Positions 4,262 through 46,990 of a stretch of 64,000 nucleotides of DNA are shown here, one piece after another. This DNA comes from Octopus sinensis (Eukaryota), in contig NC_043005.1 in assembly GCF_006345805.1 (NCBI RefSeq), positions 107,198,001-107,262,000 of the forward strand, read 5' to 3'. Each line of letters opens with the position of its first letter. Position 1 is the stretch's first letter. A program made the position numbers and the translations under genes. Under the pieces are notes generated by a model. The model saw only the letters and a list, made by a program, of their open reading frames with translations, was not told where the DNA came from and searched no databases.

Positions 4262-4412
4262 GTCTGTGTGTATATATGTAAGCATATATATATATGTATA
4301 TATATGTGTATATATATAGGTTTAAATAAGGGTTACAAACATCAGTAAGGGATCGTAAAATCCACTGAAAATACTGGTTAGCTACCTATTAAAAGTGTTG
4401 AATATTACAATT

Positions 4413-4733
4413 AATACATTATTTATATTTTACCGATATTTGTCTTCATCTTCTTTGTTAACACGGCGTTTTGGCTGATATACCCTCCAGCCTTCATCAG
4501 ATGTCTTGGGGAAATTTCGAAGCTGCGTTCTCATTCCTAAGGTATTTTTTGATGTTATTAATTATTATTATTATCATCATCATCGTCATCATCTTTATTC
4601 AGGTCACTGAATGGAATCGAACTCGGAATCTTGGGGTTAGTAGCCCACGCTCTTAGCCACTACGCCAGATACCCGTCAAATGTAAATCATGAAATTAATG
4701 TACATAATTCCTCATATCTTAAATATAGAACTG
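4413..4733 (-). mobile_element. tRNA-headed SINE with Penelope-type hammerhead motif and inverted terminal segment
   Basis: Minus strand: tRNA-like head 4674-4601 (A box TGGCGTAGTGG, B box GAGTTCGATTCC), ATG/ATA simple-repeat spacer, then GACAT-CTGATGA-AGGCTG..CAGCC-AAAACGCCGTGTT (4505-4459). A plus-oriented copy of the element's own 3' end lies at 4673-4733. Flanked by direct repeat TATTACAATT (4403-4412, 4734-4743). Confidence 0.8.
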
Positions 4734-4852
4734 TATTACAATTGATATTCAACAGTAAGGGAACTAGATAAACCGTGGTTTATATATATTTTAAGGCGAT
4801 CAGAAAATAGAGAGATAATTAATAATTATTTATTAATTTAAAATTAGATATC

Positions 4853-9784: not shown

Positions 9785-12020
9785 ATACATACATGGATGC
9801 TAAAAGACCTTCAATTTGCTAAAGTTCCAGCGTCAGCATAGTCAAAGTTACAGCTGAGGTGATTTCATCGTGGGCCACCATCGTGAAATTAAACACATAG
9901 AACGACTATATTATCACTGATAGAATATAGTATCGAAAAGTATTGCAAGGGGACAGCCTGTCTGTGATGTTGATTATACTTTCTCTAAACCCCTTGTCAT
10001 TTATGTTAGGGAAATCTGAAGGATATCTCACTGGTTCACAAGGAAATAGTAATATCAACATTACACACTGTTTGTGAATGACTTGAAACTTTATGCTAAG
10101 AATATGTATGAGATGAAAAAGAGCCTTGATCTAGTTACAACATTCTCATAGGATGCAGGGTTGGAGTTTGCTCAGGATAAAATTTGTTACATGTTTGTGG
10201 AAAAGGAGAAAACTGTAAACCAGACTAGCAGCATCTCCATCATTGATTTGACTGTTACCCCTATATCTGACTGAAGTATTTAGGGGCGAAAGAAGACATA
10301 TCTTACAATGGTACTTGTAACAAAACACGTGCCACTAAAGAATATTACAGCCTAAGAAAAAGAAACTGAGGCCTCAGAACTCTCTGCATTCAATAAAACA
10401 GTGGCCCACAATGTGCTTGCAGTGGCATTACTCATACCAACATTTGGGCTGCTTCATTGGATGCTTAATGATATCTGAGCCATTCATGTGAAAACCCGAA
10501 AATACTAACAAGCACATATAATTTCCACATAAACAGTGACGTAGACCACCGCTACGTAAAACGAAAAGAAGGCGGTAGAGGCTTAACAACGATCCAAAAT
10601 GGATTTGAATGTCGCATCATATCTGCCCGGCACATATTTGTGCTTAACCACCAGGTGTTGAAGTACATTCCTTGACTAAGTTTGCATACATGAGGCTGAT
10701 AAGATCATAAGACTTAAAAGGCAGCTCCATGAACAATACCCTTTATCTGATAACCTACAATACATGCCCAAAGAAGTCGCACGACTCTACTACAATGTAT
10801 CATCAGATGAAAGGATGAGCCTATAGGAGAGGAGACTATGCATGGATATGTTAGTAGAAAAGCCCCGAGATGTTCAGCAAAATCTTCTAACCAAGAAGAC
10901 TCGAAGTGCATACATCTACCAAGATTGCATACATAAGACTTGGAAGGCAGCTCCTTGCGCAGCATTCCTTGTGTGATAAACTTACATACATACCCAAAAA
11001 AGTCGCACGACTCTACCGTAACGTGTGATTAGATGAAAGTGTGAACCTGTGTGAGCAGAAGATTATGCATGAGTATGTTAGTAGAAAACTCTGAGATGAT
11101 AGTAACATTGTTCATCAAAGCAGTTTATCATGGAACAACAACCAGATTACTACCTCCTACTTTGAAGGGTATGCGTTTGCTATCCAAGAACAGGAAATGT
11201 CAACCAAGTACCAGATGCACAAAAGGAATAGAGATACAGGAAAAGCTGTAAAATGTGGCAACCGATGTAGACTTTGTGGAGTTCATACTGAAGATATCAC
11301 CCACATCATAAGTAGTTGTCCGGAAATGTCATCGCGGCATTATCTACCGATGAGAGATGATGTTGTAGCTAGGACACTCTATAAGGAAATCCGTCGGTAG
11401 GATAATCCGGAGGACAAAGAAATAAGAACCCACAATATGGTAGAAGACATAGCCACTCATAATAGAAAGGAATACAGGTGGAATATACCCGTGAAGATCT
11501 CAATAAAATGTAAGCACAACAGACTTGATATAATGATTAAGGTTAGAGGAGAAAATTTGTGCACAGTTGTAGAAATTAGCTGCGCATGCGGCTGTTCACA
11601 TAGAGTTGAAGATCAGTGGAAATGGGAATACCTACGCTGAACTATTGAGAAATCTGCAGTTACTCCATCCAGATTACAAGTTCAGGTTTATACCTGTAAT
11701 TATTGGGGTCCTTGGATATGTAACACACTGCCTAAATACCAGTCTTGAGAAATTAGGCTTCTCAAAACCAGAAAGGTGAAAGCTAATTCGAAGAATACAG
11801 ATCCAATCCATCACTGGAACTGCAACAATTTGTAAGACTTTCCTGAAATTTATCATTTAAATATATATATGAGCATGTCTAGATATGCAACTATATGCAT
11901 GAAAATACATATATAAAACATACAAATCTGCACATAAACATACATACATACATGCATCCATCTATCCATTCATACATACATACATACATACATACATACA
12001 TACATACATACATACATACA

Positions 12021-14866: not shown

Positions 14867-16267
14867 TATATATATACATACTGATATACAGAAGAGAAAG
14901 AGTTTGTCATAGTTATATATAAGCTTGTTCATTCTATTTTGTATGATGACCTGCGTTGAGCTTAATAAGACTACAATTTGAAAACCTTGAAACTTACGTT
15001 TATTTAATTACGCCATGTTTGGATCATGTTTCTGTTGTGACAAGTAGCTCTTATAATCATGAAAGCGTTAATTATTCATAAATGTAATTTGTTCACCCGC
15101 GGATTTCAGCTTCGAATCTGCCAATTAATATAAGCAGGGTTTACCTTTCAAAAACCGTTGAACGTGTTTTACCACACTCACCCGAATCCGTTAACACACC
15201 CACTTAATCCTTCGGTGTATTGAACCACCTAAGACACAAGGAGCAACTGAGACATATTTAACAAGCTGAAAACAACGAATTACGACATCTGGGTGTTTTC
15301 AATGAACAACAATGAATATTTTTAACGTAGGTGATGGACCGAAATTTTGTGACTCACACTAGTTAAGGACTAGTGTAAAGGCTCACAGGATGTCTTTTAT
15401 ATACATTTCTTCTCTTTACTAGTACTTTATTCTACCTAGTTGGATTCCCTTTAGAAATATTTGGATTCAGATGTTAAATGCCTATAATATCATTCCCAGG
15501 TTAATTTTTCTGTCCCTCTATCGATTCTAATATGTGCAGGTCTCCAAATTAATAGTACAAATTGTGACAATCAACTTAGGACGCTTCTACTAAAAAAAAA
15601 AAAAAAAGAAAAAATTTGTATATAAGGGTTAGTATCAGAAAGAGTACTGGCCCTTAAATATTCATAAAAATAGTGTGGCGAAAAATCTGCTGAAAGATTA
15701 CATTCAAATGTATCAATTCTGAAGCCATCCGTTGTCCATATGTAAAATGCAGCAAAATGTCTGCCAGTGCTTCTGTGAGATATTTGAAATCGTTCGAAAG
15801 TTTAGAGCCAAACACACAGAAGTGAAGCGAGCTTCAAAAATTTGGCGTAGCCTTTTATTTGCAGAAGTGAAGGTAAATGTGAAGTTTCATGTTTGGTGGA
15901 CAACGAATGAACATGTAGGATCTGTGGCGTTAGACTTGGATCGAATGGATAACCAGAGATATAGTCAATGATTCTACCATAGATTCACGTCGATCAAAAC
16001 TTTGTGAATGGGATTTTATAAACACAAATTTTGTGGGACGTTATATGAGTGATCAACTAATATTACGTATAGATAGACAATTGTCATCTGTTTTGACATC
16101 TCACTCGGTTTAAAATATATAATTGTGAATGTGCACTTGCAATAACACATATACAAACAAAACCACAAGCACGCAAACCCACAGACATACAGACACTCTC
16201 TCTCCCTCCCTGTCTCTCCATGTCTGCCTGTCTATCTATCAAACACACACATGTATATTAACGTTTA

Positions 16268-16515
16268 TCTTTTACTTCTTTCTGTCATTAGACTGAGGCC
16301 ATGTTGCTCACCGTCTTGTGGTGGGGGTTCTTTAGTTCAAAGAATAAATCCTGATACTTATTTTGAACCCTGGTATCGATTTTATCGAAACGCTATGTTA
16401 CGAGGAGCTAAACTCACAGTTACCGCTGTTAACGGCGGTGATGGAGCAACTACTGACACAAAGACACATACACATAGATATGTACGGATAGACACAGACA
16501 CACAGACACACACAG
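16268..16515 (-). mobile_element. Decayed 3' part of the CORE-type SINE family seen at 56431
   Basis: TCTTTTACTTCTTTCTGTCATTAGACTGAGGCCATGTTG is the diverged reverse complement of the 56431-56841 tail. Confidence 0.55.
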
Positions 16516-17167
16516 GTTCTTGCATATAAACTGAGACCAATTTTAAGCAGTTGGCTTAGTGGGTTTAACATAAAACCATAAAAGAAAAATTTAATCGGCA
16601 CTTAGGGTGTTGAATAACATCTGTATTGCTACACATAAGAGTTAAATATATATACTAACAGAGGGTTCTAGCTGAACCATCCAAGCAATGGAGACAGACA
16701 TAGATGAAAAGTCTGAAATTAACAGACAAAATAAGCCTACTCCATTGGTTTTCAGCTTTGCTCATTGGTGGTTATCTTCCCTATCAATGTATATAAATAT
16801 ACGCTTATGCAGCTTTAAGGGTTTTAACTCTAATTTCTAGCAGTCACAATTAGTGACGATTAAAGTTTTCTTTTATGGTTTTAGGCTTCGTGTAACTGCT
16901 TACTTTAATATTTAGTGCACACATAAGCATTTCCCTCAATCAGTCATAAATCTTTATGGTAACTTCATCTACTGACACAGGATTTATCATAACCGTCTCA
17001 GCAATGGGGATAGGCACTGTTGAGGAGTTGCAATTAACAGACGAAACTAGATTACTCCAACGGTTTTCAGCTTTACTCCCCTATCATTATATATACATGT
17101 GCGTTCATGCACTTTCAAGCATTTTAAAACAGTACAGGTTCTGTTCAGCACCCTCATTCACAATTAT

Positions 17168-17168
17168 G

Positions 17169-17223
<55 letters not shown>

Positions 17224-17545
17224 TATATATATATTATATATATATATATATATGCATGTGTGTATATATGTTGTATGTGTGTAAATATATATGTATGTAT
17301 ATATTCGTACGCATATTTATATCTGACATTTGTATGTTCTCTTCTACGTCATTATAAGCACCCGTAGAAGTATACACACACACATTCACACACTTATACA
17401 CACATACTCATATGCAGAAATGATAAGTGTTGAATGTGTTTGAAACAATACCCACTGGTCTCTTACAATCTGAATTCCTCACCAAACATACACATATATG
17501 CATTTGTCCATCTTTCTCTCTTTTTCTTTCTCATTTCTCCTTTCT

Positions 17546-17580
<35 letters not shown>

Positions 17581-17583
17581 TAT

Positions 17584-17639
<56 letters not shown>

Positions 17640-17849
17640 ATATATATACACACATATATAATGATGATGATGATGATAATAATAATAATAATAATAGTAA
17701 CAACAATAATAATAACAATAATAATAATAATAATAATAATAACAATAATAAAAGTCTGGGTGTGTTGTGTGCCTGTATGTAATATTTTTTCATTTATTAT
17801 ACATAATGTATGTGTATATATATATATATCTATATATATAATATATATA

Positions 17850-17909
<60 letters not shown>

Positions 17910-18018
17910 GTACTCAGGTAGTTGAATTCGTGTAAGTAAACATATTTATGGATGGTTTATACAAGTAAAAACATATTTTATATGCCAAGTTTGCTATTAC
18001 AGTTAAAAAGTCTCGGTT

Positions 18019-18052
<34 letters not shown>

Positions 18053-18078
18053 TGTATGTATGTATCTATCTGTCTGTA

Positions 18079-18123
<45 letters not shown>

Positions 18124-18366
18124 GTCTATCTATCTATTTATCGATCTATCTATCTATGAATTCATGTATGTATGTATGCATATTTGTATGTACGCATATG
18201 CATACATACACATACAAATACACATGCAGACACACACACATACACACACTCACACACACATACACACACATACATATATAAAAAAACGAGACGCACTCAT
18301 TATAACAATACACGTGTAGTCATATAAAATTTTTTACTTGTATAAAACATCCATGAACATATTCAC

Positions 18367-18409
<43 letters not shown>

Positions 18410-18459
18410 TATATGTATATACATATATATACATATGTATATGTGTGAATATATATATA

Positions 18460-18503
<44 letters not shown>

Positions 18504-18929
18504 TTCACGCAAGCACCTTCTGAAACACACATCTCCGAGCGCACGCAGACACACACATACAGACACATGTACTTGCAGAGAGAGAGGAGAAGACAGGAAA
18601 AGTAGATAAATATGTGAATGCGAGTGTGATAGTTGACATTGTAAGTGACCAGTGTCTAATGTTTATAAGAAATGGTCCCTGATAGACAGAGATGGAGTCT
18701 TTGATGTAAAGATTTAAATTGAAAATTGAATTTCTATATGGTTTGTTTGTGAGACATTTTTATGTCCATTGCATCGTTTACTTTCACTTTATAATTTGAA
18801 AGAGTTACACATAAAAACAGGCACGTATATGCGTATACATACCATATTTACACAAACACACACACACACAACCACACACATATATATGTATATATAGATT
18901 GATAGATACATACATACATACATATACTT

Positions 18930-18999
<70 letters not shown>

Positions 19000-19027
19000 G
19001 GGTAGATAGATAATACATACATACAGG

Positions 19028-19061
<34 letters not shown>

Positions 19062-19120
19062 AGTATATATATATATATATATATACATACATATTATATA
19101 TATATTATATATATATATAT

Positions 19121-19165
<45 letters not shown>
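17168..19165. repeat. Dense microsatellite field: (TA)n, (AAT)n, (TATC)n, (CA)n
   Basis: Visible runs separated by short unique spacers; source of many YIYI/NNN/LSIY ORFs. Confidence 0.9.
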
Positions 19166-19168
<3 letters not shown>

Positions 19169-19962
19169 TGTACTTATGTATGTATAATCGTAAGTATCCG
19201 CATAGGTTCATACACACATACGCGCACGTATATATATTTGTGTGACTATTCATAACCCTGTCTCTCTCTCTCTCTAACACACACACACTCATATACGCAC
19301 ATATATTTTTATGAGTGTGTTTGCATATATGTGTGCTTGAGTTTTTATGTATATATATATGTGTGTATACTTTATCTATTACGTTGTTTAGTTTCCAATT
19401 AATTTCTTGATTGTTTTCACGTTGATCTTATTCATCTTGTTTGTTTTTAATTTCACCTGGGCTATTTATTTCTATTTTCATGAAAATCATCTAAATATTA
19501 CATAGATATATTGATTTCTTAACTCACCAAATTTTTATAGTGTAAAGTTGTCTTTATCTTTGTTTGGTTTAACAAAATATTTGTGAAGGATATTACTTTT
19601 GCTGCTGTAGCTTTTGTTGTTGTTTAACACCAGGTCACCTCTTAGGGAGCAGAATTATGCTTGTATGACGTTTAATCACGTCAAACCCTTGTTTTTGCAT
19701 ATCAAGTGTATCTTGTCTCTTGAGTATTTTAGTCTTTCTTAATTTAAGACAATTGTGTGTGTGCTTGTATAATTTGATATAAGTTTTTAGAAAGAAGAAT
19801 GAACACAAAGAAAATCTTTTGTAGGCTCAAGAACATTGCAGTTGTTACATTTGATGAAATATTCTATACTTAAAGTAGGTAATAGGGTTATCGACTTGAG
19901 TCTGAGGAAATGGTACTCTACAATGCCGCCTACGTATATATTGTGTAAAAGTTTGATCAAAA

Positions 19963-20140
19963 TCGATCACGGCAGAATTGAACGCAGAGCGTGAAGACTG
20001 ACGGAATGCTTCGAAGAATTTTGTCCGGCGTACTAACGATTCTTATTTCTCTATTGCCCACAAGGGGTTAAACATAGAAGGGACAAACAAGGACAGACAA
20101 AGGGATTAAGTCGATTACATCGACCCCAGTGCGTAACTGT
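19963..20140 (-). mobile_element. Nin-type SINE fragment (tail-to-head junction)
   Basis: Matches the 33014-33245 family; the tail is followed by a head segment. Confidence 0.75.
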
Positions 20141-20399
20141 GGTTGATCATGTTTACATAAAATCGGTATCGATTGTGTAAAAGTTTGATCAAAAGTGCTT
20201 CAGCCAAGACCCCAGCCGATATTATTTCTGCTCACCAGTTAAGCATTATCGGTGTTCTTGTTTTGTTTAGTTTTATATAAACAAGTGAAACTTATCTGTG
20301 AACAGTTCCCATCTGAAAAAGTTATCATAAATGCCTGACTTTCATTGACTGGTCTTCTCATAGCTTGAAGACTGGTGCATTCATTACAACCCTCGAGAA

Positions 20400-20620
20400 A
20401 GCAGGAGTGGAGTCGCTTTCCGAATGCATTTGGAGCTGTTTGCCTTTATCCGATGGTCGGAAAAGCACACTATGCAGCTAAAAGACAGTAAATTCGAATT
20501 ATGCACTTCGGTAAAGTGGCTTCACTTAAGCTACCATACACTCTTCCCTCGAGCGAAAACCTCATGGTATCAAACACCGCTTGGGATCTCGGAGTAACTG
20601 TCGACAACAACTTAAACTGC
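20400..20620 (+). mobile_element. CR1/Jockey-group LINE RT C-terminal fragment
   Basis: IRWSEKHTMQLKDSKFE/MHFGK..YTLPS..DLGVTVDNNLN resembles CR1-type 'W...n.M.fN..K...mhfG...kDLGV.vd..L'. Confidence 0.6.
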
Positions 20621-20644
20621 TATTTCCGAACAAACAACAAAGTG

Positions 20645-20717
20645 GGAATCTGGGAATCGAAACAGCGATCCTACGACCGCGTGTCCGCTGCCCTAACCAC
20701 TGGCCATTGCGCCTCCA
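20645..20717 (-). mobile_element. Isolated tRNA-derived SINE head (7312 family)
   Basis: Minus strand GGAGGCGCAATGGCCAGTGGTTAGGGCAGCGGAC..GTTTCGATTCCCAG parallels the 7312 head. Confidence 0.65.
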
Positions 20718-21602
20718 CATACACACACACACACACACAAACACACTTTAGCCTTGCAGTTTTAACTAGGAAGCCAGGTTATTCGTATCAGTGCTGTATA
20801 CATACATTCTCTCTATGCATAAAGTTGTTATTTGCCTACAGTTTCAAGTGTGTGTATGCGTATTTGCATTCATTATTGGATTTCTTTACAGGTGTATAGA
20901 TACACTGAGATATCTGAACGTTTTAACCATTAAATCAACATTTATGTTGATAAAAATATCGTATACTAATGCACGTAATAACTAATTTGACACTGCTTAT
21001 CACTCACTTCCATTACGTCATCAATATATGCACAATCTGAAGTGTCCACCTCAATATATCACATACAACTGTACGATACTGTTATTCCTTATACCCAGTC
21101 AGGGTACTATCCGATCCAATCATTATAGACCGATCCCGTCACGACCAACATGATCTCTTGAATCAAGCTGTACTATTTAAGTGATCAATGACACATCTAG
21201 AAACAGCGACCAAATCTGCTTCCAATTACGCTTTATAGTCTGAAATAAGAAATATATATTTTGGAAATTGTTGTACTTTCTTAGAAATGCAAATTCATAT
21301 TTTTGAATCAAGGATGTGCAGGATGAGAATGCTAGTACGAACTATAGAACAACAATAACAACAACAACAATAACAGCAGCAACAGCAATAGCAGCCGTTC
21401 ATGAATTTGAACCTGGAGATCTCCATTTCCAGCGACTTCGAGGGCCACCTCCCAGTGGTGTCAACGAAGAGCCATCGACTACAACAAGACGACCAAAGTT
21501 TTTTTTCCAAGGTCTGGGGTCTCCAGCCCCTAAGCCCTAGACCATCACCTAATCACCCTTACCCGAATTGTTGCTTAACAACAACAGCAGCAACAACAAC
21601 CA

Positions 21603-22175
21603 TTACGACGACGGAATGCTTCGAAGTATTTTGTCCGGCGTACTAACTATTCTTATTTCTTTATTGCCCACAATGGGCTAAACATAGAGGGGACAAACAA
21701 GGACAGACAAAGGGATTAAGTCGATTACATCGACCTCAGTGCGTAACTACAACTTAATTTATCGACCCCTAAAGGATGAAAAGCATTACTACACACAAGG
21801 GGCTAAACACAGAGGGGACAAACAAGGACAGACAAACGGATTAAGTCGATTACATCGACCCCAGTGCGTAACTGGAACTTAAGTTATCGACCCCGAAAGG
21901 ATGAATGGCAAAGTCGACCTCGGCGAATTTGAACCCAAAACGTAACAGCAGAGGAAATACCTATTTCTTTACTGCCCACAAGGGGCTAAACACAGAGAGG
22001 TCAAACGGATTAAATCGATTACATCGATCCCAGTGCGTAACTGGAACTTAATTTATCGACCCCAAAAGGATGAAAGGCAAAGTCGATCTCGGCGGAATTT
22101 GAACTCAGAACGTAACGGCAGACGAAATACGGCTACGCATTTCGCCCGGCGTGCTAACGTTTCTGCCACCTTAAG
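21603..22175 (-). mobile_element. Tandem array of Nin-domain tRNA-SINE units
   Basis: Three copies of the tail (GGGGCTAAACA..GGATTAAGTCGATTACATCGAC) and of the Nin-like core (minus: GCCTTTCATCCTTTCGGGGTCGATAAATTAAG); full head only at 22170. Confidence 0.85.
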
Positions 22176-23629
22176 GCAAGCCAATAATAATACCAACAAT
22201 ACTCCAAACATCCATTTACACTTAGCTAACTGCATACTATTTGTCAATCAATAATGTCACCGACACGTATCGCTGCTACATTCTTTTCTAAATATTCAAC
22301 TACCTTAAACAAACTCTGCATTATATGTCAGTCCCTGCCACAACCCTTACACAGAAACAACCATATGCTTACACTTCTATATCCCTGAGATAAATAAAAA
22401 ACAATGAATAAAATAAAACTCTCGGTTATTTCTTTTATTCGTTCTACTCTACCTCAACCAACGTTAGAGCATGTACCATAATTACTATGACATACCATAA
22501 ACAGACTTAACCGATTTTAAACAACCAAACACGCTGTAGGTTTTTCGGCGACATTTTCAATCTCAGGATATGTTTAACATGCTCTGAATTCGAAAAGTAG
22601 ACGCGAACGAGTGGCATTGTTAAAATAAACCATGCCTTTGATGGCTTTTGAAAGCTTAAGTTTGGCAAATAACTGTTAGCTTCCCCACACAGGAAGCAAA
22701 TTAATATCATCTTTGTTATATCCATTTCGAAAAACTGCGCGAGAATATGGTCCCTCGACCAAATATACGCATTTCTAGTCATTTGTAGCAATTAGTTTCT
22801 CTAACTGATATTTATCTTGCTATACATTAAAGGCCTTCAAAGAAATCGACCGTTATAATATCATTGATGTTAATCGAGGAAAGCGTATGTACGAGAGTGT
22901 CTGTGTGTGCATTGTGTGAGAGTTTGCGTGTGCGAGTGTTACTGATGGGTGACAATGTGTATATGCGTGCGTGTCAGATTTAAAGTCGGTGTCCGAATCA
23001 CTCTGAGCTTGTGTGTATGTAATTATATGCTTGTGTATGTGTTTGTAAATATGTTTATTCATGTGTAGTGTGACATTTCACATTGTTCTTGTAAATATGT
23101 AAGCATGGAAGTTAGCGTAACTCTATCTACGTACGCTTGCGCATAAAATGCATAAATATGTACATCTCTGCATCTATGTGTATAGGTGTGTATGTGTGTG
23201 TATATGTGAATGCTTGATGTGTTGGATGTGCTGTAATTTTTTTTTTTACTTCCAAGGTGCACTTGACCAAACCAAAAACCAATAAGTCACCATGACAACC
23301 AAACGGTCCTTCAGTTATTTTCAAAAGTAGATCATAAATTCACATATTACAAGGAAAACCATTGAGCTTCAGTAATGTGGACAGACTACAGTCGTAAAAT
23401 GGACGTTCACGTATGTTTAAAATCTTGGAGTGGGTTATTGGACGCTGAAGAAATTGAGAACTTGTAAACATTTGTTCTCCCGACATATATTTTCTTTTGC
23501 TACTTGTTTTTCTTTTTTTTTGTAGTGTTCAATTTCTTCATAAATCCTACAGGAATTTATTGTCTGACAATTTTTTCTCTAAAATATCGCTTTATTATGA
23601 AAAAGGATACATATAATTGTAATGTAATG

Positions 23630-24066
23630 TAAAGACAGACGAAATATCGCTAAGCATTTCGCCCGACCTGCTAATGTTTCTTATTTCTTTATTACCCCCA
23701 AGGGGCTAAACATGGAAGGAACAAACAAGGACAGACAAAGGGATTAAGTCGATTACATCAACCACAGTGCGTAATTGGTACTTAATTTATCGACCTCGAA
23801 AGGATGGACGGCAAAGTCGACCTTGGCGGAAAGTGAACTCAGAACGTAGCAGCAGACGAAATACCGCTAGGCATTTCGTTCGGCGTGCTAACGTTTCTGC
23901 TGGCTAGCCGCCTTAATGTGTATTATATATTCTTTTCTACTCTAGGCACAAGGCACGAAATCTTGGGGGAGGGGCCCAGTCGATTAGATCGACCCCAGTA
24001 CACAACTTATACTTATTTTATCGACCTCGAAAGGATGAAAGGCGAAGTCGACCTCGGTGGAACCTG
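23630..24066 (-). mobile_element. Nin-domain SINE cluster (full unit, extra head, variant-tail copy)
   Basis: Same head and core as 33014-33245; the 23930-24066 copy has the alternative tail (CTAGGCACAAGG..GGGGGAGGGG). Confidence 0.8.
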
Positions 24067-25927
24067 AACAAGAAGACTGACCAAGGCTTACACAACTCTC
24101 CGAACATGAAGTCTGACTTAGGCTTACACAACTGTCCGAACGATTGCAATCTTTTAAGATCGCATTTGCTCAATTTCAATTATTTAGTTATATTTTGCCC
24201 TAAACGGGAGCTCCGAATGTTTGTTACTGAACTTAGCATTGTACTCACTGTGTAAACTATACAATTTCATATGTCAGGTCTAGGCCGATTCTATACAAGT
24301 CACAAGGAAATCTTCAATGGGTAACCACATACTCTAATGCTACTAGCTCATTCTCTTTGAGACGTCAGCTCCTAAAGTGTTCCTTTTGGAACTTGTCCAG
24401 AGAAAGGGGTGAGTGGATAAACAATAGGGCAAATAATCAACAATAAATAAAACTCTTCATAGTTGATTGAGGTCCTTAACAGCTATGGTAGTAATATTAT
24501 GAAAAGGAGATGAATGCTATAAGGATCACTAAGTCCCTTTCTAATACTTGAATGGAAATTACAGCAATATTTAATCCGTTGCTGGGTCGGGGATACCAGC
24601 AAAACTCGTTTGCTAAAACTTGAAAACGTCGCCAAGAGTGTCACGTGCTGTATTAGTAGGAACGCGGACATTTGGTTTACTAATTACTTTGGTAATTGCT
24701 AAGATTTATATTACTATCGTGGATGGTTTTTCTGATCTCACTATTTAGTAAGTTATCATTGTTGTTAGTTATATTTAGCCTCGTGTTTTATTCAGGAATT
24801 CATTCGTGTTTATATAATGGAAAATGGGGAGACAAAATTTTTGTCAGATCAGGTGAAACGTATGCAAACGCCATTGTACGGATAAGTAACAAACGTGTCT
24901 TTTATTCTTTTGTTTGTTTCAGGCATTGAGCTGGGGCCATGCTCGGACAAAATCTTGCTTGTTAGAATCGATTTCAACATATTTTAAGATAATAGAACGT
25001 ATACAAAACAACAGTAGTTATTAAGTTTTGGGAAACAAACAAAAATACAAACAACTCGCGCAAAGCATGTGTATGTGTGTTTTTCTGTGTATATATACAT
25101 TTATGCATGTATGTATATATGTATGTATATCTACATACATATAAATGCGAAAACCAATTTCAGTGTCTCAGTGTGTCACACTTTGAATCCCCTCTCTCGC
25201 TATTTAATGACACTTTTACTGTTGACAATGTTTTATTAAAAGTAGTAGTGTTGATGGTAGTAGTGGGAGTAATAATAAGAGACAGAGAAAGTATGGGTAT
25301 GTGAGAGAAAGAGGGACTGAACACTAAATTCATTTTCTTAATACCACCACCATCGCCACCACATTGACCATGCACACACCATTCAGACTTCTGACGTCAC
25401 CACCATCAATACCTTTGACATCGCTGCATTTCCCTCCACGACCATGACCATTGTCTTTCACATCACTTAGTCTCACTCTCATCGCTGACCGCCTCGGCTA
25501 CCACCACCACTATCATCACCGCCACCTTCGCCTCTATCAACACTACAGCCCATATTATTACTATCATCCCATTACCATCATAAAAAAAGCTGAATGGTGT
25601 ATGTAGGGCAGATGTGGTGGCGATGGTGATGGTACTCTTGCTTATCCTGCAGCTTTGCAATAAGTTCCAAGTCGACAAAATTATATTGTTTCGATGAAAA
25701 TCGTTCATTGCTTGAAAAATATTGGCCAAGTTTAATAAAATTTTATATTTACTAAATGCACGAAGTGTCATTGTTGGGCCCAAGGCCCGATGAAGAGCCC
25801 TCCACAGGAGCTAGCCTAAGATCCACCCTATCAGGTCGCTTTTAAGCTAGTGTATATATATATGTGTGTGTATGTGTGTATATATATATTATATATATAT
25901 ATCTTACATACGCAAACGCATACACAG

Positions 25928-29393: not shown

Positions 29394-31615
29394 TCAGTAG
29401 TCTCACTTTCATCACGCCTTTTCACCGCACTACTGAGCTCAGCTCTGTGTGCTTTGGGTATGTGTTGTGGTTTGATGTGATGCTCTTATTTTCATTGTAT
29501 TGGCAGTGTTTTTACATAGGATGTGTGCGGTACCTAGTAGTGCAATTTTCTGTATGTTATATATGCTTCTAAGTCCTAGTGTCTTTGTTATGTATTTATC
29601 TGAAATTTTTTATCATACATAATACCATGATAGGAATGGTTTCTGATTTTAGGCTCCACATTCGAGTAACCTCTATTTCCATTTCTTTATATTTTGAAAG
29701 TTTCTCCGTTCCTTTTAGAGAAACATTGTCATCTCTTGATACTGATGCATCGAGCAGAAAGCATCTTTTTCTTGGTGATCTCTGACAACTATATCCGGCC
29801 TATTAACCTTGATTTCTCTAACTGTGTGCATTGGCATATCCTAGATTATGCTTGTTTTCTCATTTTCTGTGACCTCTTCTAGCATGTGCCTATACCATCT
29901 TTTTCTGCTCTCATTCCATAGTGTCGGCATAGCTTCCAGTGTATATAGATCTTAACCTCGTGGTGTCTGTGAATATATTCCTTCTTAGCCAGGACTGGGC
30001 AGCCAGAGACAATATTATTTATTGTTTCTTACTTCATCACCACATATTCAGTAGTTAATTGTATTTGTTTTCATTACATGTTTTTGGTGATTTATAGTGG
30101 GAAGCCTTTGATCTTGTGCAGCAATTAAAACTGCTTCTGTCTCTGCTTTGAGTACTGAGCTTCTCAGCCATTGTTGGGATTTTGATTTGTCTATTTCTTT
30201 TCTGTTTAGTTTCACCCACGAAGGGGTCTTTCTTGTCATCGCTTTATCATGATCCGTTGCTGTTCCAGTTTCAGTTGGGATTTCAGTTGTTTACAGCTTT
30301 TGTAGTTTCTTCTTTTTCTTCATAGTTCTTACGTACGATGACTTCATATTTGTGTTTGTCAGCTTCCTTAAAGACAGAAGATATTTTTTTTGTTCGTGTT
30401 TTGTGACTATTTGCATAAGTTTTCCCTGCTTCAGGAATAGTTTTTTTTTAAATCTTATAGTCGTTATTTTGTAGCAGTTTTCTAGCTGTATAAGGCCTCT
30501 ACCACCTTCGATACGGTGTATATATATAACCTTTTTATGTCAGATTTTGGGTGATGCACTCTAAATCCTGTTGTTATTTTTCTTGTTTTCCTGTCTATTT
30601 TGATTAATTCATTTAGAGTCCAGTTAAGAATAGTGTAGCTGAAGTTTATAAATGGGACGCCTTAGAGTGTTCATACCTATCATCTTGTTTTTGGCATTGT
30701 GCTCTCTTTTCAGTATTAATCTAACTCGTCTATAGTACAGTTCTATATTTAAGAGATGAGGAATTATGTACATTATTTACGTTTGACGGACATATGTCCT
30801 CATCTTGTTAACACAACGTTTCGGCTGATATACCCTCTAGCCTTCGTCAGGTTTTTTGGGGAAATTTGAAACCCAGGTTCGAAATTTCCCCCAAAACACC
30901 TGATGAAGGCTGGAGGCTATATCAGCTGAAACATTGTGTTAACAAATATGATGAGGACAAATTTCCGTCAAATGTAAATAATGTAAATAATGTCATTTAT
31001 AGTATTTCTTTTTTATCTTCTCTTCCATTTGTTTGAGTTGTATCTTGTCTTGTTGCCTGATTCCTAAGTATTTGTATGTCTGGCTTTGGTCTGATTCTAT
31101 TAATTCATTTGCTTTATCTAGTGTGATGTTGATACTCTTAACTAGTTTTCTTGGTTTCAAGGTGCTTAGGCACATTTTTCTAAGCCAAATTTCATATTTA
31201 TTTCTTTGGTAAATCCATGTCCTGTCTGTCGTAATGTTTCCAGCTATTTATCATTAGTAGCACACAGTTTTAGATGATCTATATATATAAGAGATGGTTT
31301 ATTGTCTTGCAGTAATAGTTGTATCCGCATCCAGTTCTCTTTAGTATGTCAGATAATGGTGTTAGTGCCAAGCAGAAAAGGAGTGGAGAGAGTTCGTCTC
31401 CCTTGAATATTCCTTTTCTAATGGGGATGGCTTTGGCTTTTATGAGTCCTTATTTTGTTTGGAACTATAGCACTCTCTGCCACTTATTCATGGGATGTGT
31501 TATATGTTTTATGATCATTGGTGCTACCTTGTTCATGGCTAGTGTTTCCAGGATCCATGTGTGGGGCACACTACCAAAAGCCTTTCGATAATCGATCCAT
31601 GCCATACTTAAACCC
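29394..31615 (-). mobile_element. Decayed 5'-truncated R4/Dong-like retrotransposon, interrupted at 30738-30997
   Basis: Minus-strand motifs GIFKGDELSPLLFCLALTPLS, YKYLGI, EGGRGL, WLRSSVLKAETEAVLIAAQDQRLPT and RLE/C-terminus; 3' UTR related to 28929 and 35820; (TTA)n at both ends. Confidence 0.85.
30738..30997. mobile_element. Palindromic (head-to-head) copy of the hammerhead-bearing SINE 3' half
   Basis: ~105-bp inverted arms centred near 30875; hammerhead motifs at 30810-30855 (-; CTGACGA..CAGCCGAAACGTTGTGTT) and 30895-30940 (+; CTGATGA..CAGCTGAAACATTGTGTT); TSD TATAGTA (30731-37, 30998-31004) inside the host Dong frame IKKKYY|RRVR. Confidence 0.85.
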
Positions 31616-41678: not shown

Positions 41679-44600
41679 TATGTTTGACTTTTGCTTTATG
41701 TCTGTATAAGTTGGCTCCAAGTCTCACCCAGAGACCTCAAGAGACAACAGGTTGGAAGTTCTGTGCCATATATTTGGGGGTTTTTTTGTGTTGTACTAGT
41801 GAATGTCTAATACATAAAAAAATAAATAAATAAATAAATTAATAAATAAAAAAAGTGTGTTTTAAACCTTGGGATTACGTAGAGAGTATTTTGCGTAGGA
41901 TATGAGCAGTTCCCATGAGAACTATCTTTTGAATTTCTGCAATTTGGGGGTTTCCTTGTATCTGAGTTAGGTAGCAATCAGTCCCTTTCGCTATCATTCC
42001 CAGGGCACCTATGACAACAGGTATTGTTTTTGTCTTCAGCTTCAGCTGATTTCTATTTCAAGATCTTTATATTTGCTCAGTTTTTGGTAGGTCTTGACAG
42101 ATACGTTTATATCGATTGGGACAGTCATATCAATGAGGAGGCATGTTCTTTGTCTGAAGTCTTTCAATATAATGTCTGGCCTATTTGCATCTATCTTCCT
42201 GTCAGTTTGAATGGTGAAGTTCCAGAGGAGTGAGATGTGGTCATTTTCAAGCACAGGAGGTGGATTGTGTTCCCACCAGTTTTTTTTTCATGGGGCAAAT
42301 CCAGGTTTTTGCAAATTACCCAGTGAATATATTGTGCAGCTCTATCATGCCTACTGAGGTACTCTGTAGGCGCTAGAAGACTGCATTTGGAGACAACATG
42401 GTCAATGGTTTCATTTTGTTGTCGGCATACACGACATGTTGGGTTACTGCCGTTCTTTAGTATGTTGGCCTGGTAGTTTCTTGTTGGTAGGCATTGATCT
42501 TGAGCTGCTATGATAAACCCCTCTGTTTCAGATTTTAAGCTAGAGGCCATTAGCCATTGATGGCTCAGGGCTTTGTCGATATCTGCATTATTCGCTCTCT
42601 TTGGGTATTTGCCATAGAGAGATTTTTCTTGCCATTTATTATTCAGAATATCTAAGGCCGCAGTTTTGGCACGGGTTTTCATGCGCCTAGCTTTTTCTGT
42701 ACTTGTGTCTTGTATATCTATCTCTAATTCCGAAATTGGTTGTATTCGGAAATCACTTAGATATTCCTTTGCCTGTTTTGTGACTGAGTATGATGCTTTC
42801 TTGTTTTCATGTTTTGAGATAAGTTTTAACATCCAGTCCTCAGAGTTTTTCAGGTAGGTGTCTAGGCCAATTGTAGCAATCTTCATTGTTATTGCCAGTT
42901 GCAAAAGACCACAGCCTCCCTCTTTTCTTGGCAGATAGAGTCGTTCTGTATCTGCCTTATGGTGGTGCATTCTATGCATTGTCAACAGTTTCCTTATTTT
43001 TCTGTCGAGCTGACATATTTCAGTAATTGACCAGTTAACAATATTGAAACTGTAAGTCACGACTGGTATGGCTAATGCATTGATCGCTTCGATCCTGTTT
43101 CTTGCATTCAGCTCTGTCTTGAGTATTGCTCTCACTCTTCGATAGCATTCTCTCCTGATCCTTTCCTTTATCTCTGAATGCCTTATTCCGTTCCCTTCAA
43201 TTACCCCTAGGTACTTGTAGCTCTCCGCTGGGTCTAGTTCTTTTATGACATTCTGTTGGTCAAGGTTAACGTTAGATGTTTCTGTCATTTTTCCTTTGAT
43301 AAAGGTAGCCTTTGCACATTTATCGAGGTCGAATTGCATTCTGATGTCGTCAATGAATTGTTTGACTATTGATAGTAAGCCCTTGCGTTGTTGATCATTT
43401 TTTGCAAAAAGCTTTAAATCATCCATGTAAACGAGATGATTTATATTTTTATCAAACATTTTATACCCGTACTGCGCGTCATTGAGCAGTTTTGAGAGAG
43501 GTATTAAGGATAAACAAAAGAGGAGTGGTGACAGTGAGTCACCCTGGAAAATGCCACACGAAATGTTTACATCACCAGCATTTAGGGATTCATTGTCACT
43601 GTTCACAGTTAGTGTGGTTCTCCATGATCTCATACTTACAGTCAAGAAGTTTCGCAGAGTAGGTGCTATCTTATACATTTCCAGGCATTTCCTAATCCAG
43701 CTATGTGGTAGGCTATCAAAAGCCTTTTTATAGTCTATCCAGGCTATTGATAAGTTTTTGTGTCGTTTGTGACAATCTTCTAAGATCATCTTATTGATGA
43801 GTAGCTGGTCTTTACAGCCGTAGGATCCACGTTTACATCCTTTCTGTTCATTAGGGAATATGCTGCTGTCTGTTAAAAAACTATAGGTATATTCCGTCAG
43901 GACAGATGTTAGTGTTTTGTACATAGTTGTTAAGCAGGTTATGGGTCTATAGTTTTTTGGTTCATTTGTTTCTTCACTTTTTGGAAGCAGGAATGTTAAC
44001 CCATTAACTAGCCAAGGAGGCATCCTACTAGGGTGTTGCAAAACATCATTGTACAGTTCTGTTAGCACTTCATGGCTCTCTGGGAAGGCATTCAGCCAGA
44101 AGTTAGGAATTTTATCCTTTCCTGGAGACTTCCATTTGCTTGACCACCTGAGAGCAGATCTTATATCTTCTACCTTGACACCCTCCCACTTTTGCTCTTC
44201 TAAGGGGTCCAGTTCTGTAGATATTCTGTCAATCCAGGGGGCCTTTTCGTTGTGTGTTTTTCTTCTGCCCAGATTTTATTCCAAAATACCTGCACTTCTT
44301 TTAATGGTACAGACCTTGCAGTAAACGCTGTTTTTCCTATCTTCCTGTAAAAATTCTTGGTGTTATTTTTGAACATGTTGTTGTCCTTGAAAAATCTAAC
44401 ACGCTTTTCATACCTCGCTATGCGGGAAGCTTTTGCAGATACCTTTTGTTTCATGGTTTCTATAGTGGCATCAATATCAAGTATAGTTTTTGTAGGTTTG
44501 GTAGTTTTGTGAGCCTTAATGTTTTTAAAATATTCAATGTCAGATCTAAATATTTTAATTTGTTGTTGCAGACGCTCTTGCCAAGAAGGCTTTTTGTGGG

Positions 44601-45176: not shown

Positions 45177-46990
45177 ACCTTTGCATAGCTTCTAACGCTG
45201 GAGATGTACTGCAGTGTCAGCTGTTCACTACCAGTGAACTAAGGTAACACCTCTTATTCTTCGATCACCTTCCGGAGTATTCGGGCGGTTCAAGCAGTGC
45301 TATGTTCTACAAGCGCTCCACCCTTATTGCAGCCCTATTTGTTCCACGTACTTCTCGAGAATTTTGCTCACTGTTCCCAGAGCTCCGACAATTATTAGTA
45401 CTTCTGCTACCTTTTTCTTCGACCACAACTGCTTAACATCCCTAGCTAACCTGTCATATTTCTCGATTTTCTTTCTTCCTTATCGCATAACTTGTTGTCA
45501 GCTGGGTATTCTATATCTCTGATCCAGCATAGTTTGTTTTCTTTCTCAATTAAGACTACGTGCAGCTTCCTATTTTCTATCTCATGGTTGCACTGACTCA
45601 TAAAATCCCATAGGATCTTTGCATTTTTATTTTCATCGATGCATTCGGGTTTGTGGTCCTACAAATTTTTTGCTCTGTCAAGTACCCACTTGTTACAAAG
45701 TGTCCAATGGACAAGCCTAGGTATATTGGTATGGCATCTCTTATATTCCTTCTGAGCTAGTGGCGTACATTGGCTGGTAATATGCCATGCGGTTTCACCA
45801 TTTTGTCCATACCTTTTATTTTGCCTCTCTTCAAATCTAACAGACCACACTTTCTCAATCCGAACTCCGTTCTAATATCAGCACTGAAGGTATACACCAT
45901 ATCAACGAGGGAACTGACTTGGGTTTCATCTTTACGATAAAGTTTGAGGTCCAACATGAATAACAAATGGTCGACTTTTTGTTGGTGGCTTTTGAATACA
46001 GACCTATCTTTCGCTTTCCTTAGAATCAGTGTTAGTGGTATCAAGCACAATACAAAGATTAGTGGGGACAGGCAGTCCCCTTGGAAGATACCCCTCCTAA
46101 TTTATATTATCCCTAAACTTCTTCCGTATGATGTCTTGTCCGTCCTCCTATTCACCATACTTTTTGCAAGCAATCACTCAACATTCGACGCAATACCAAA
46201 AAGGTTCATACATTCCATAATTCAAGAATGTGGGATCATATCGTACACCTTACCATAGTCGATCCATGACATGGCTAAGTTACTTTTGCTCCTCTTGCAG
46301 CCTCTCAGTACAGTTTTGTCTATCAGGGGTTGATCCTTGGTACCTCTGCACTTGCCACCCTTGTGTTCAATGTTTCTCCAGATGTTAGTATATTGACTCT
46401 GCGAGTATTCCAATCAATAAATTCCACATAACTGACAAACAGGATTTCGGCCTGTAATTGTCTACCGTATTGATTTTTTTGATGTTTTTCAAGCAGAGCT
46501 CTTTCCTAATCAATGTCAACCAGTCCGGTGTTAAACTGTATTTTCATCGTTATCTCTGCTGCTATTTTCCAAGACCCGTTTCTTGATAGCTTCATTCTCT
46601 ATTTCTGTGAACCAACAATTTTTTCCTATTGCTCTAGCGTGATCACATAGTCTCTGTTCCGTGAGTTGAAACAATCCCTTTTCCCTCCAATGACCATACA
46701 TATGTTGTCGGTAACCCCTAATTTGAGCACCATTTTCTTCTACCGGGCTGCTGAAGAAGTAACACTCCATGACCACAGCATTAATTTTCTTGCTCCATCT
46801 ACGCCGTGTGTAGTGGTTTCCTTCTGGATATCGACAGACTGAAGCCGGACCAGAATCTCTGGGCTTGCCGGGTGGAACACTGTCACTATCATTGCCTTCA
46901 GTTTCATTACCACCGTTATTGATAATATTTTGTTTTGTCATTGTCACTCATATGAGGTAACGATTATCAGGTTGCGCAATTACCAGTGTT
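45177..46990 (-). mobile_element. Second R4/Dong family, internally deleted but retaining N-terminus and 3' end
   Basis: ORF 46531..46947 RRRWSKKINAVVMECYF..RGYRQHM..LTEQRLCDHARAI (R4/Dong-type N-terminal domain); RT pieces [38 protein letters not shown]; ETAWHITSQC..KRCH; C-terminus ARILRKVIEE*; short (TAA)n tail at 45166-45177. Confidence 0.88.

Follow-up and report, generated by a model that had tools for sequence, protein, structure and literature searches.

Several described systems share part of the organization of the element reported here; the comparisons below extend to excerpts of the cited sources. Poseidon of Anolis carolinensis (PAc) likewise has an ORF with RT and C-terminal GIY-YIG domains and AT-rich targets. 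In the excerpted description (PMC11167929), its ORF starts in the hammerhead, its tail lies between two internal RT start sites and both target strands are primed; the ORF start has its counterpart in octopus, and so, probably, do the two start sites and the priming. Whereas these excerpts mention neither a tRNA-derived segment nor a Pol III promoter, the octopus element carries such a segment as its putative promoter, and, in a further difference, about 34 nt separate its ATG from the catalytic core downstream. Penelope of Drosophila virilis shares partial tandems, inverted 5' pieces, a 34-bp tail and a promoter in the terminal repeat (pLTR), but that promoter is internal, LINE-like and contains an intron (PMC2377424, PMC8557442), while the octopus spacer is a tRNA-like unit with A and B boxes.

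The Schistosoma repeats SM-alpha and Sj-alpha (reviewed in PMC6765202) are short and have a Pol III promoter beside a type I hammerhead. They are, however, described as non-coding, often tandem and free of an ORF, whereas the octopus unit forms the terminal repeat of an autonomous element together with the beginning of its ORF, and its hammerhead lacks a stem III loop. Non-LTR retrozymes and other non-autonomous derivatives of Penelope-like elements (PLEs) are similar in being short, hammerhead-bearing pLTR relatives moved by PLE proteins (10.64898/2026.07.22.740005; PMC7229834; MRC1, PMC8557442). Retrozymes form head-to-tail tandem arrays, in contrast to the dispersed, single or inverted octopus copies that start at a tRNA head; as a class of non-coding hammerhead tandems, they do not accommodate a repeat whose body is coding. 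The TRIMp3 elements Cassandra, Helenus and Ajax also have a small-RNA-derived Pol III promoter within the terminal repeat, but are non-autonomous LTR elements and not an autonomous protein-coding PLE (PMC10886601).

PLE hammerheads, ORF-overlapping pLTRs and Pol III promoters, beside schistosome hammerheads and in TRIM LTRs, are thus already known singly. In a search of freely available papers, largely by title and abstract, we found no report of a tRNA-derived promoter in the pLTR of an autonomous PLE. The repeat itself may already be catalogued, be it in Repbase, Dfam or the 1994 octopus SINE paper, and then probably as a SINE.

The insertion in the window

The window is a stretch of 64,000 nt from Octopus sinensis (contig NC_043005.1, positions 107,198,001 to 107,262,000). 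The insertion at 4403-4743, which the original prediction took for a SINE fused to a ribozyme, is not a separate SINE but a short copy of the pLTR that belongs to an autonomous retrotransposon of Penelope/Poseidon type. The predicted parts are all in place (Table 1). On the minus strand, a simple-repeat spacer connects a tRNA-like head, which has both an A and a B box, to a minimal Penelope-type hammerhead located by motif and stems, and an exact 10-bp TSD encloses the unit. The piece upstream of the head, described as an inverted copy of the unit's own 3' end, is present but is not a mere copy, as it carries a tail of ~34 nt that is absent from the direct arm. The junction between head and inverted piece recurs at other loci with different TSDs. 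Two core positions of the hammerhead are broken, GAAA having become AAAA (4472) and the palindromic CGTT having become CGCC, which agrees with the earlier expectation of an inactive ribozyme in this copy.

A second locus in the window had been proposed as a better preserved copy. Its hammerhead core is indeed intact, but stems I and II are mismatched, there is no tRNA head, and the locus consists of two inverted arms. Its flanks at 30729-30737 and 30996-31004 agree at 8/9 bases and likely represent a TSD.

Table 1 Positions of features in the window
Feature	Position	Strand	Remarks
TSD, left copy, 10 bp	4403-4412	.	exact match to 4734-4743
PLE ORF start (ATG 4534-4532); end = inner priming site; holds the hammerhead	4413-4534	-	frames of copies L288 and L290
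Minimal type I hammerhead	4460-4505	-	G12 and stem III palindrome mutated, predicted inactive
Hammerhead stem I	4501-4505 paired with 4460-4464	-	
CTGATGA	4494-4500	-	
Hammerhead stem II	4473-4492	-	
(AAT/GAT)n spacer, head to ORF start	about 4551-4598	-	same spacer in family copies
tRNA-derived head	4599-4674	-	5' strand of acceptor stem replaced
B box	4613-4624	-	within tRNA-derived head
A box	4657-4667	-	within tRNA-derived head
Inverted piece = pLTR 3' end with ~34-nt tail	4673-4733	+	4-5 nt microhomology to head
TSD, right copy, 10 bp	4734-4743	.	exact match to 4403-4412
Head-less arm with tail	30738-30870	-	hammerhead 30810-30855, core intact, stems I and II mismatched
Head-less arm without tail	30871-30992	+	inverted relative to 30738-30870

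The unit is the terminal repeat of an autonomous element

The ORF of the element was found by reading upstream of position-ordered copies: in four of the first 30 such loci, the head is preceded by a common sequence that translates as the C-terminus of an endonuclease. Among 30 loci from a GIY-YIG DNA search, which include the query locus and three duplicates, the head follows ~30 nt after the stop codon in 27; of the other three, one stops short of the head, another breaks off after its first 12 nt and the third has lost most of it. A protein search with P0007, which belongs to a set of relatives that are 52-68% identical (P0001-P0007), yielded 30 loci, of which 22 reach the stop codon, each with the head behind it. 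All 30 are 83-100% identical to the family, and a sister Poseidon family without the head was not among them. Contigs bridging ORF end and head also occur in runs X16 and X17, which bear two other organism labels.

At the opposite end of the ORF, body or tail lies directly before the 5' part in 25/30 loci, as predicted for a 3' part that matches the pLTR of an RT and GIY-YIG element. The natural copies L288 and L290 have open frames of 401 and 391 codons, respectively, that lead from spacer through hammerhead and tail into the RT ORF, and translation of the body gives a sequence alignable to the N-terminal part of P0005, a full-length relative of 847 aa, at 49% identity over 377 aa. Because both copies are in frame and this N-terminus is conserved in P0005, what had been taken for a SINE body is where the ORF begins, and the unit as a whole represents the pLTR. 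The tandem unit accordingly runs from ORF stop over ~30 nt to tRNA head, (AAT)n, ATG, hammerhead, tail and the rest of the RT and GIY-YIG ORF. Its stop-to-ATG spacer measures 124-162 nt in six copies and is mostly tRNA-derived. That the unit is a pLTR with a tRNA-derived spacer is near certain. The predicted mobilisation by an RT and GIY-YIG Penelope element is supported. Another part of the original prediction falls: the unit, head included, is the autonomous element's own pLTR and not a separate non-autonomous element with a borrowed PLE tail, and the ribozyme region, in frame in L288 and L290, is protein-coding.

The ORF is colinear with P0005. Its natural copies have a DKG motif, YVDD and a C-terminal YSIPC..YKGET..R..EH segment, and RVT_1 matches copy L286 with an E value of 3e-6, below the curated cut-off. 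The Pfam GIY-YIG model gave no score on copy L172, and the EN assignment rests on the motif and homologues. The EN is C-terminal and no Cys-rich linker separates it from the RT, which fits Penelope/Poseidon rather than Neptune, Nematis or Naiad. Judged by sequence, the single ORF with RT followed by a C-terminal GIY-YIG domain classifies the element as an EN+ Penelope-like element, and the pLTRs show the architecture of this group: they stem from a partial tandem arrangement, have inverted 5' pieces and bear at one end a tail in the range of 30-40 bp. A partner sought among 30 Pfam GIY-YIG loci and 20 longer stretches yielded other PLE families with unrelated pLTRs.

Outside the genome, a metagenome scan found nine distant loci (30-55%), five with hammerhead motifs and none with the A/B-box pattern (0/9). 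The viral and prokaryote collections contained no useful relatives, and a sequence search for a solved PLE structure found none. ORF-linked pLTRs are more deleted than short copies, with at least five deleted columns in 65% vs 28% (L172-L200, L299-L328), and copies L285, L287, L291 and L298 break off about 400 nt into the ORF and resume in the 3' pLTR. At 1650-1930 of L180, a high-depth set of ORF variants is present in runs X17 and X18 and nearly absent from X16 and X19; it perhaps marks a younger subfamily in related organisms.

The hammerhead

Across the family, the commonest letter in each alignment column spells out a full hammerhead core, as the prediction expected of a consensus, and the whole core is kept in 18 of 87 unselected arms. 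The only shared core change outside CpG sites is at position 7, where any base is tolerated in hammerheads. The motif is of minimal type I, with an extra base after A9, G10.1-C11.1 and a palindromic 15.2-16.2. In the excerpted text of PMC4209133, these minimal-hammerhead features are reported for PLE pLTRs. The Rfam hammerhead models, proposed as an Infernal-type check, gave no match at E≤10 on two natural copies and none in the window among the matches listed (150 of 191), so that the identification, as read from the sequence, rests on motif and stems.

The predicted fold is as stable as that of shuffled sequences (z -0.2 to -1.0), the ACGU duplex alone is predicted to contribute -1.7 kcal/mol, and cofolding of a dimer did not give the hammerhead dimer geometry. 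In this model, the ribozyme would cut only as a dimer or with the help of a protein. RNA ends had been anticipated at the predicted cut site; three unstranded RNA-seq runs of another organism label contain none there. The predicted cut position lies downstream of the in-frame ATG. Self-cleavage is able to induce cap-independent translation, according to the excerpted source (PMC13725137).

Family size and linkage of head and body

The family has the features of a short, dispersed, high-copy and TSD-flanked repeat, with copies 5-8% diverged. A DNA search of the genome (G000) gave 3504 first-look candidates, of which 40 were scored. A 29-mer from the 3' side of the hammerhead has 3600 exact matches in the genome, while its reversed control has none, and the family copies are therefore not chance matches. 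As this 29-mer is exact in 9/37 arms from a head search and in 13/90 arms of three pooled sets, none selected on it, the 3600 matches scale to roughly 15,000-25,000 pLTR arms. No intact ORF was found among the copies of the element.

Head and body are regularly linked, as the prediction required: a body lies within 400 nt of 184/208 heads, and of 26/29 in a head-only search. The 24 heads without a nearby body mostly have a foreign repeat in the spacer, a long spacer or a truncation, and neither a free head-plus-tail SINE nor a head-only SINE parent is evident among them. The (AAT)n spacer is frequently hit by at least two other repeats ending in (AAT)n, which part head from body (L057, L059, L141, L159, L164, L032, L053, L155, L169, L039, L234).

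3' ends, inverted arms and a model of insertion

The 3' ends of the family fall into two groups; in the DNA contigs from five runs, the two peaks of ends are separated by 33-34 nt. Exactly one arm carries the tail in 36 of 40 inverted insertions, a biased set in that about 25 were picked by a query of this same form. Most of these insertions have TSD-like repeats of about 7-18 bp. One-tailed inverted pairs are the expected product of priming on both nicked target strands at two sites. By analogy to Anolis Poseidon in vitro, the RT-EN protein could nick both strands and prime cDNA at two internal sites. Priming in the first pLTR would give SINE-like short copies and priming in the second pLTR 5'-truncated ORF copies, and two cDNAs joined by microhomology or through the 5' palindrome would give inverted arms. 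The window copy could have formed from a long cDNA (inner site to head) and a short cDNA (outer site) joined by microhomology.

Loop flip compared with tail side gave a mixed outcome on fold-back versus twin priming (about 5 cases for, 3-5 against). Four bases that perfect the palindrome are present in 7/23 copies with non-UTR sequence before the head (L035, L056, L019, L026, L038, L130, L131), a pattern pointing to brief fold-back of the cDNA or to second-generation templates.

A tRNA-derived head and the 5' ends of copies

Aligned with tRNA genes of the same genome, the head reaches z values of 7-9. The Rfam tRNA model matches one natural copy weakly (13.3 bits, model positions 8-63), and ARAGORN reports no tRNA in the window. 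As a possible parent tRNA, the best of 22 sampled genes, an incomplete sample, is Arg(TCT), with Cys, Thr and Lys close behind. Both boxes of the head are intact and keep their normal spacing, in contrast to the decayed tRNA stems.

The 5' ends were sampled head-blind and in genome order in 91 distinct arms, after three duplicates had been dropped. Nineteen arms begin within the body and another 24 within the spacer, while 48 connect to head or ORF; the latter comprise 12 that end inside the head, 23 that end at -17 to +5 and 13 that run upstream. Hence, 23 of the 36 arms reaching the head start end there, whereas the in-head rate predicts 4.4 (Poisson P 4e-10). The 23 include four head-to-head copies aligned into the palindrome, and without them 19 ends fall within -9 to +5, BLAST-defined ends being uncertain by a few bases. 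Ends are most frequent at a pyrimidine-purine step that precedes the A box by 13 nt, where Pol III normally starts. For a 29-mer taken from the sequence immediately before the head, the genome contains 301 exact matches, or about 2,300 arms when scaled by 6/45, in agreement with the head-blind sample. Among ORF-bearing copies, three also begin at the head start and four run further up.

A TATA-like element lies 30 nt before the start and a hairpin overlaps it, so that this accumulation of ends could equally reflect initiation by Pol II or arrest of the RT. In the latter case, the tRNA segment would be a passive old insertion in long read-through RNAs, with the ends arising by RT stop or fold-back at the palindrome over the head start. 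A hairpin is indeed predicted across the head start in ORF-linked copies, and both the head-to-head copies centred on the palindrome and the extra fold-back bases in the 7/23 copies mentioned above would be accounted for. However, an RT stalled at the base of the hairpin would leave ends near +10, and the ends cluster at about -7 to +5; the DNA hairpin predicted for the end of the cDNA has little stability (other pairings, -1.5 to -2.5 kcal/mol); and a passive insertion leaves the 124-162-nt spacer, and hence the element, without a promoter. We regard this explanation as quite improbable.

The proposed Pol III promoter

Our main reading, to which we give a probability of about 0.58, is that a tRNA-derived segment, the stop-to-start spacer of the pLTR, probably provides a Pol III promoter for the element, which would shed SINE-like short copies. 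Transcription would start at a G six bases before the tRNA +1 and 13 nt before the A box. From boxes, spacing and ends, Pol III is likely to drive the element.

A Pol II start at the same site would use a TATA-like box over the stop codon, the tRNA segment being a fixed passenger or a downstream 5' UTR element. The box, TTTATAAG, lies 30 nt before the commonest 5' end, a position that fits Pol II equally well, and a capped Pol II RNA would settle the question of translation, Pol III RNA being uncapped and a poor mRNA. CCAAT, CRE and TATA motifs are present in the pLTR of another PLE family of the genome, and D. virilis Penelope has an internal promoter in the pLTR that its excerpted description likens to TATA-less LINE promoters (PMC2377424). 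Against Pol II speak the A and B boxes, intact at normal spacing despite the decayed tRNA stems, and the lack of TTTT in the majority columns of the ORF. A TATA-like element at -30 can assist Pol III genes as well, which further weakens the case. A Pol II start is unlikely in our judgement.

Pol III terminates at runs of four or more T, and an RNA without TTTT could run through the ORF into the next pLTR. The alignment of 122 pieces of the ORF, with a median depth of 37, provides 2349 majority columns, in which TTTT does not occur. Shuffling the ORF's own codons leaves 2.7 on average (P 0.034 and 0.043), a control codon usage gives P 0.022 for the absence, and 12 other long frames of the genome, two of them of low quality, have 1.0-6.0 per kb. 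The test is nevertheless weak, because the protein is Phe-poor like P0001 and P0005 and because GGGG is likewise absent (1.1 expected, compared with 2.7-3.5 for TTTT). The absence of TTTT is a suggestive sign of Pol III only. In the three unstranded RNA-seq runs of another organism label, there is no pile-up of transcript starts or ends, and 66-72% of reads continue into unrelated flanks, i.e., passive read-through.

It is tempting to go beyond the main reading and propose an autonomous PLE with a captured tRNA promoter that would be transcribed end to end by Pol III, with an ORF purged of TTTT, short copies as SINEs in the making and cap-independent translation of the RT. We hold this wider proposal tentatively, at somewhat less than even odds.

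Short copies

An alternative closer to the original prediction makes the short copies themselves Pol III templates that spread as a SINE lineage independent of the full element. Short arms outnumber arms at ORF ends by about 7-10 to 1, they are slightly less diverged (0.054 vs 0.065) and less deleted, and internal RT priming requires no defined 3' end. However, the head belongs to the autonomous element, and a free head-plus-tail SINE is not evident among the 24 heads lacking a nearby body. Two non-CpG subfamily variants are equally frequent among short units (n = 99) and units linked to an ORF (n = 57), with Fisher P=1 in each case, for which reason a separate SINE lineage is not visible, and these units contain no short-only variant outside CpG sites. 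Four CpG columns do differ between the two sets, and many of the short copies had been picked by queries with those letters. An independent lineage therefore seems very improbable. The repeat has the tRNA-derived head with A and B boxes of a SINE, but it is not a distinct non-autonomous element sharing only a 3' part, since the whole unit lies in the autonomous element. This sequence-based test of independence thus excludes it from the SINEs, even if its short copies behave like them.

Other elements in the window and genome

The window also contains a 694-codon non-LTR retrotransposon frame on the minus strand at 42191-44275 (RVT_1 E 4e-28, weak zf-RVT), which we take to resemble the R4/Dong type, and smaller related fragments at 11095-11400 and 45757-46101. 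Loci L091-L094 (about 570-5950 in L091) represent a different young PLE family with copies about 99% identical. It has two ORFs, of 479 and 781 aa, which overlap; its long 3' region contains CCAAT, CRE-like and TATA motifs, and stem III of its hammerhead is a longer palindrome. Further short repeats that resemble hammerheads and have GAAACGT ends, but bear no relation to the family of the window insertion, occur in L304 (about 377, +) and L061 (about 2230-2330 as oriented), which suggests that the genome may hold further pLTR-derived repeat families. The GIY-YIG matches in L070 and L071 look like exons of a host nuclease gene, presumably SLX1-like, and not like PLEs.

Implications

If Pol III makes the full-length RNA, the element would be a natural protein-coding Pol III unit, which is unusual for a coding jumping gene. 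A Pol III promoter would also make it a test bed for how PLEs produce and translate their RNA and for the purpose of their hammerheads, and reading by Pol III from end to end would open a route by which SINEs are born from inside an autonomous element. Even without Pol III, repeats annotated as tRNA SINEs can be PLE terminal repeats.
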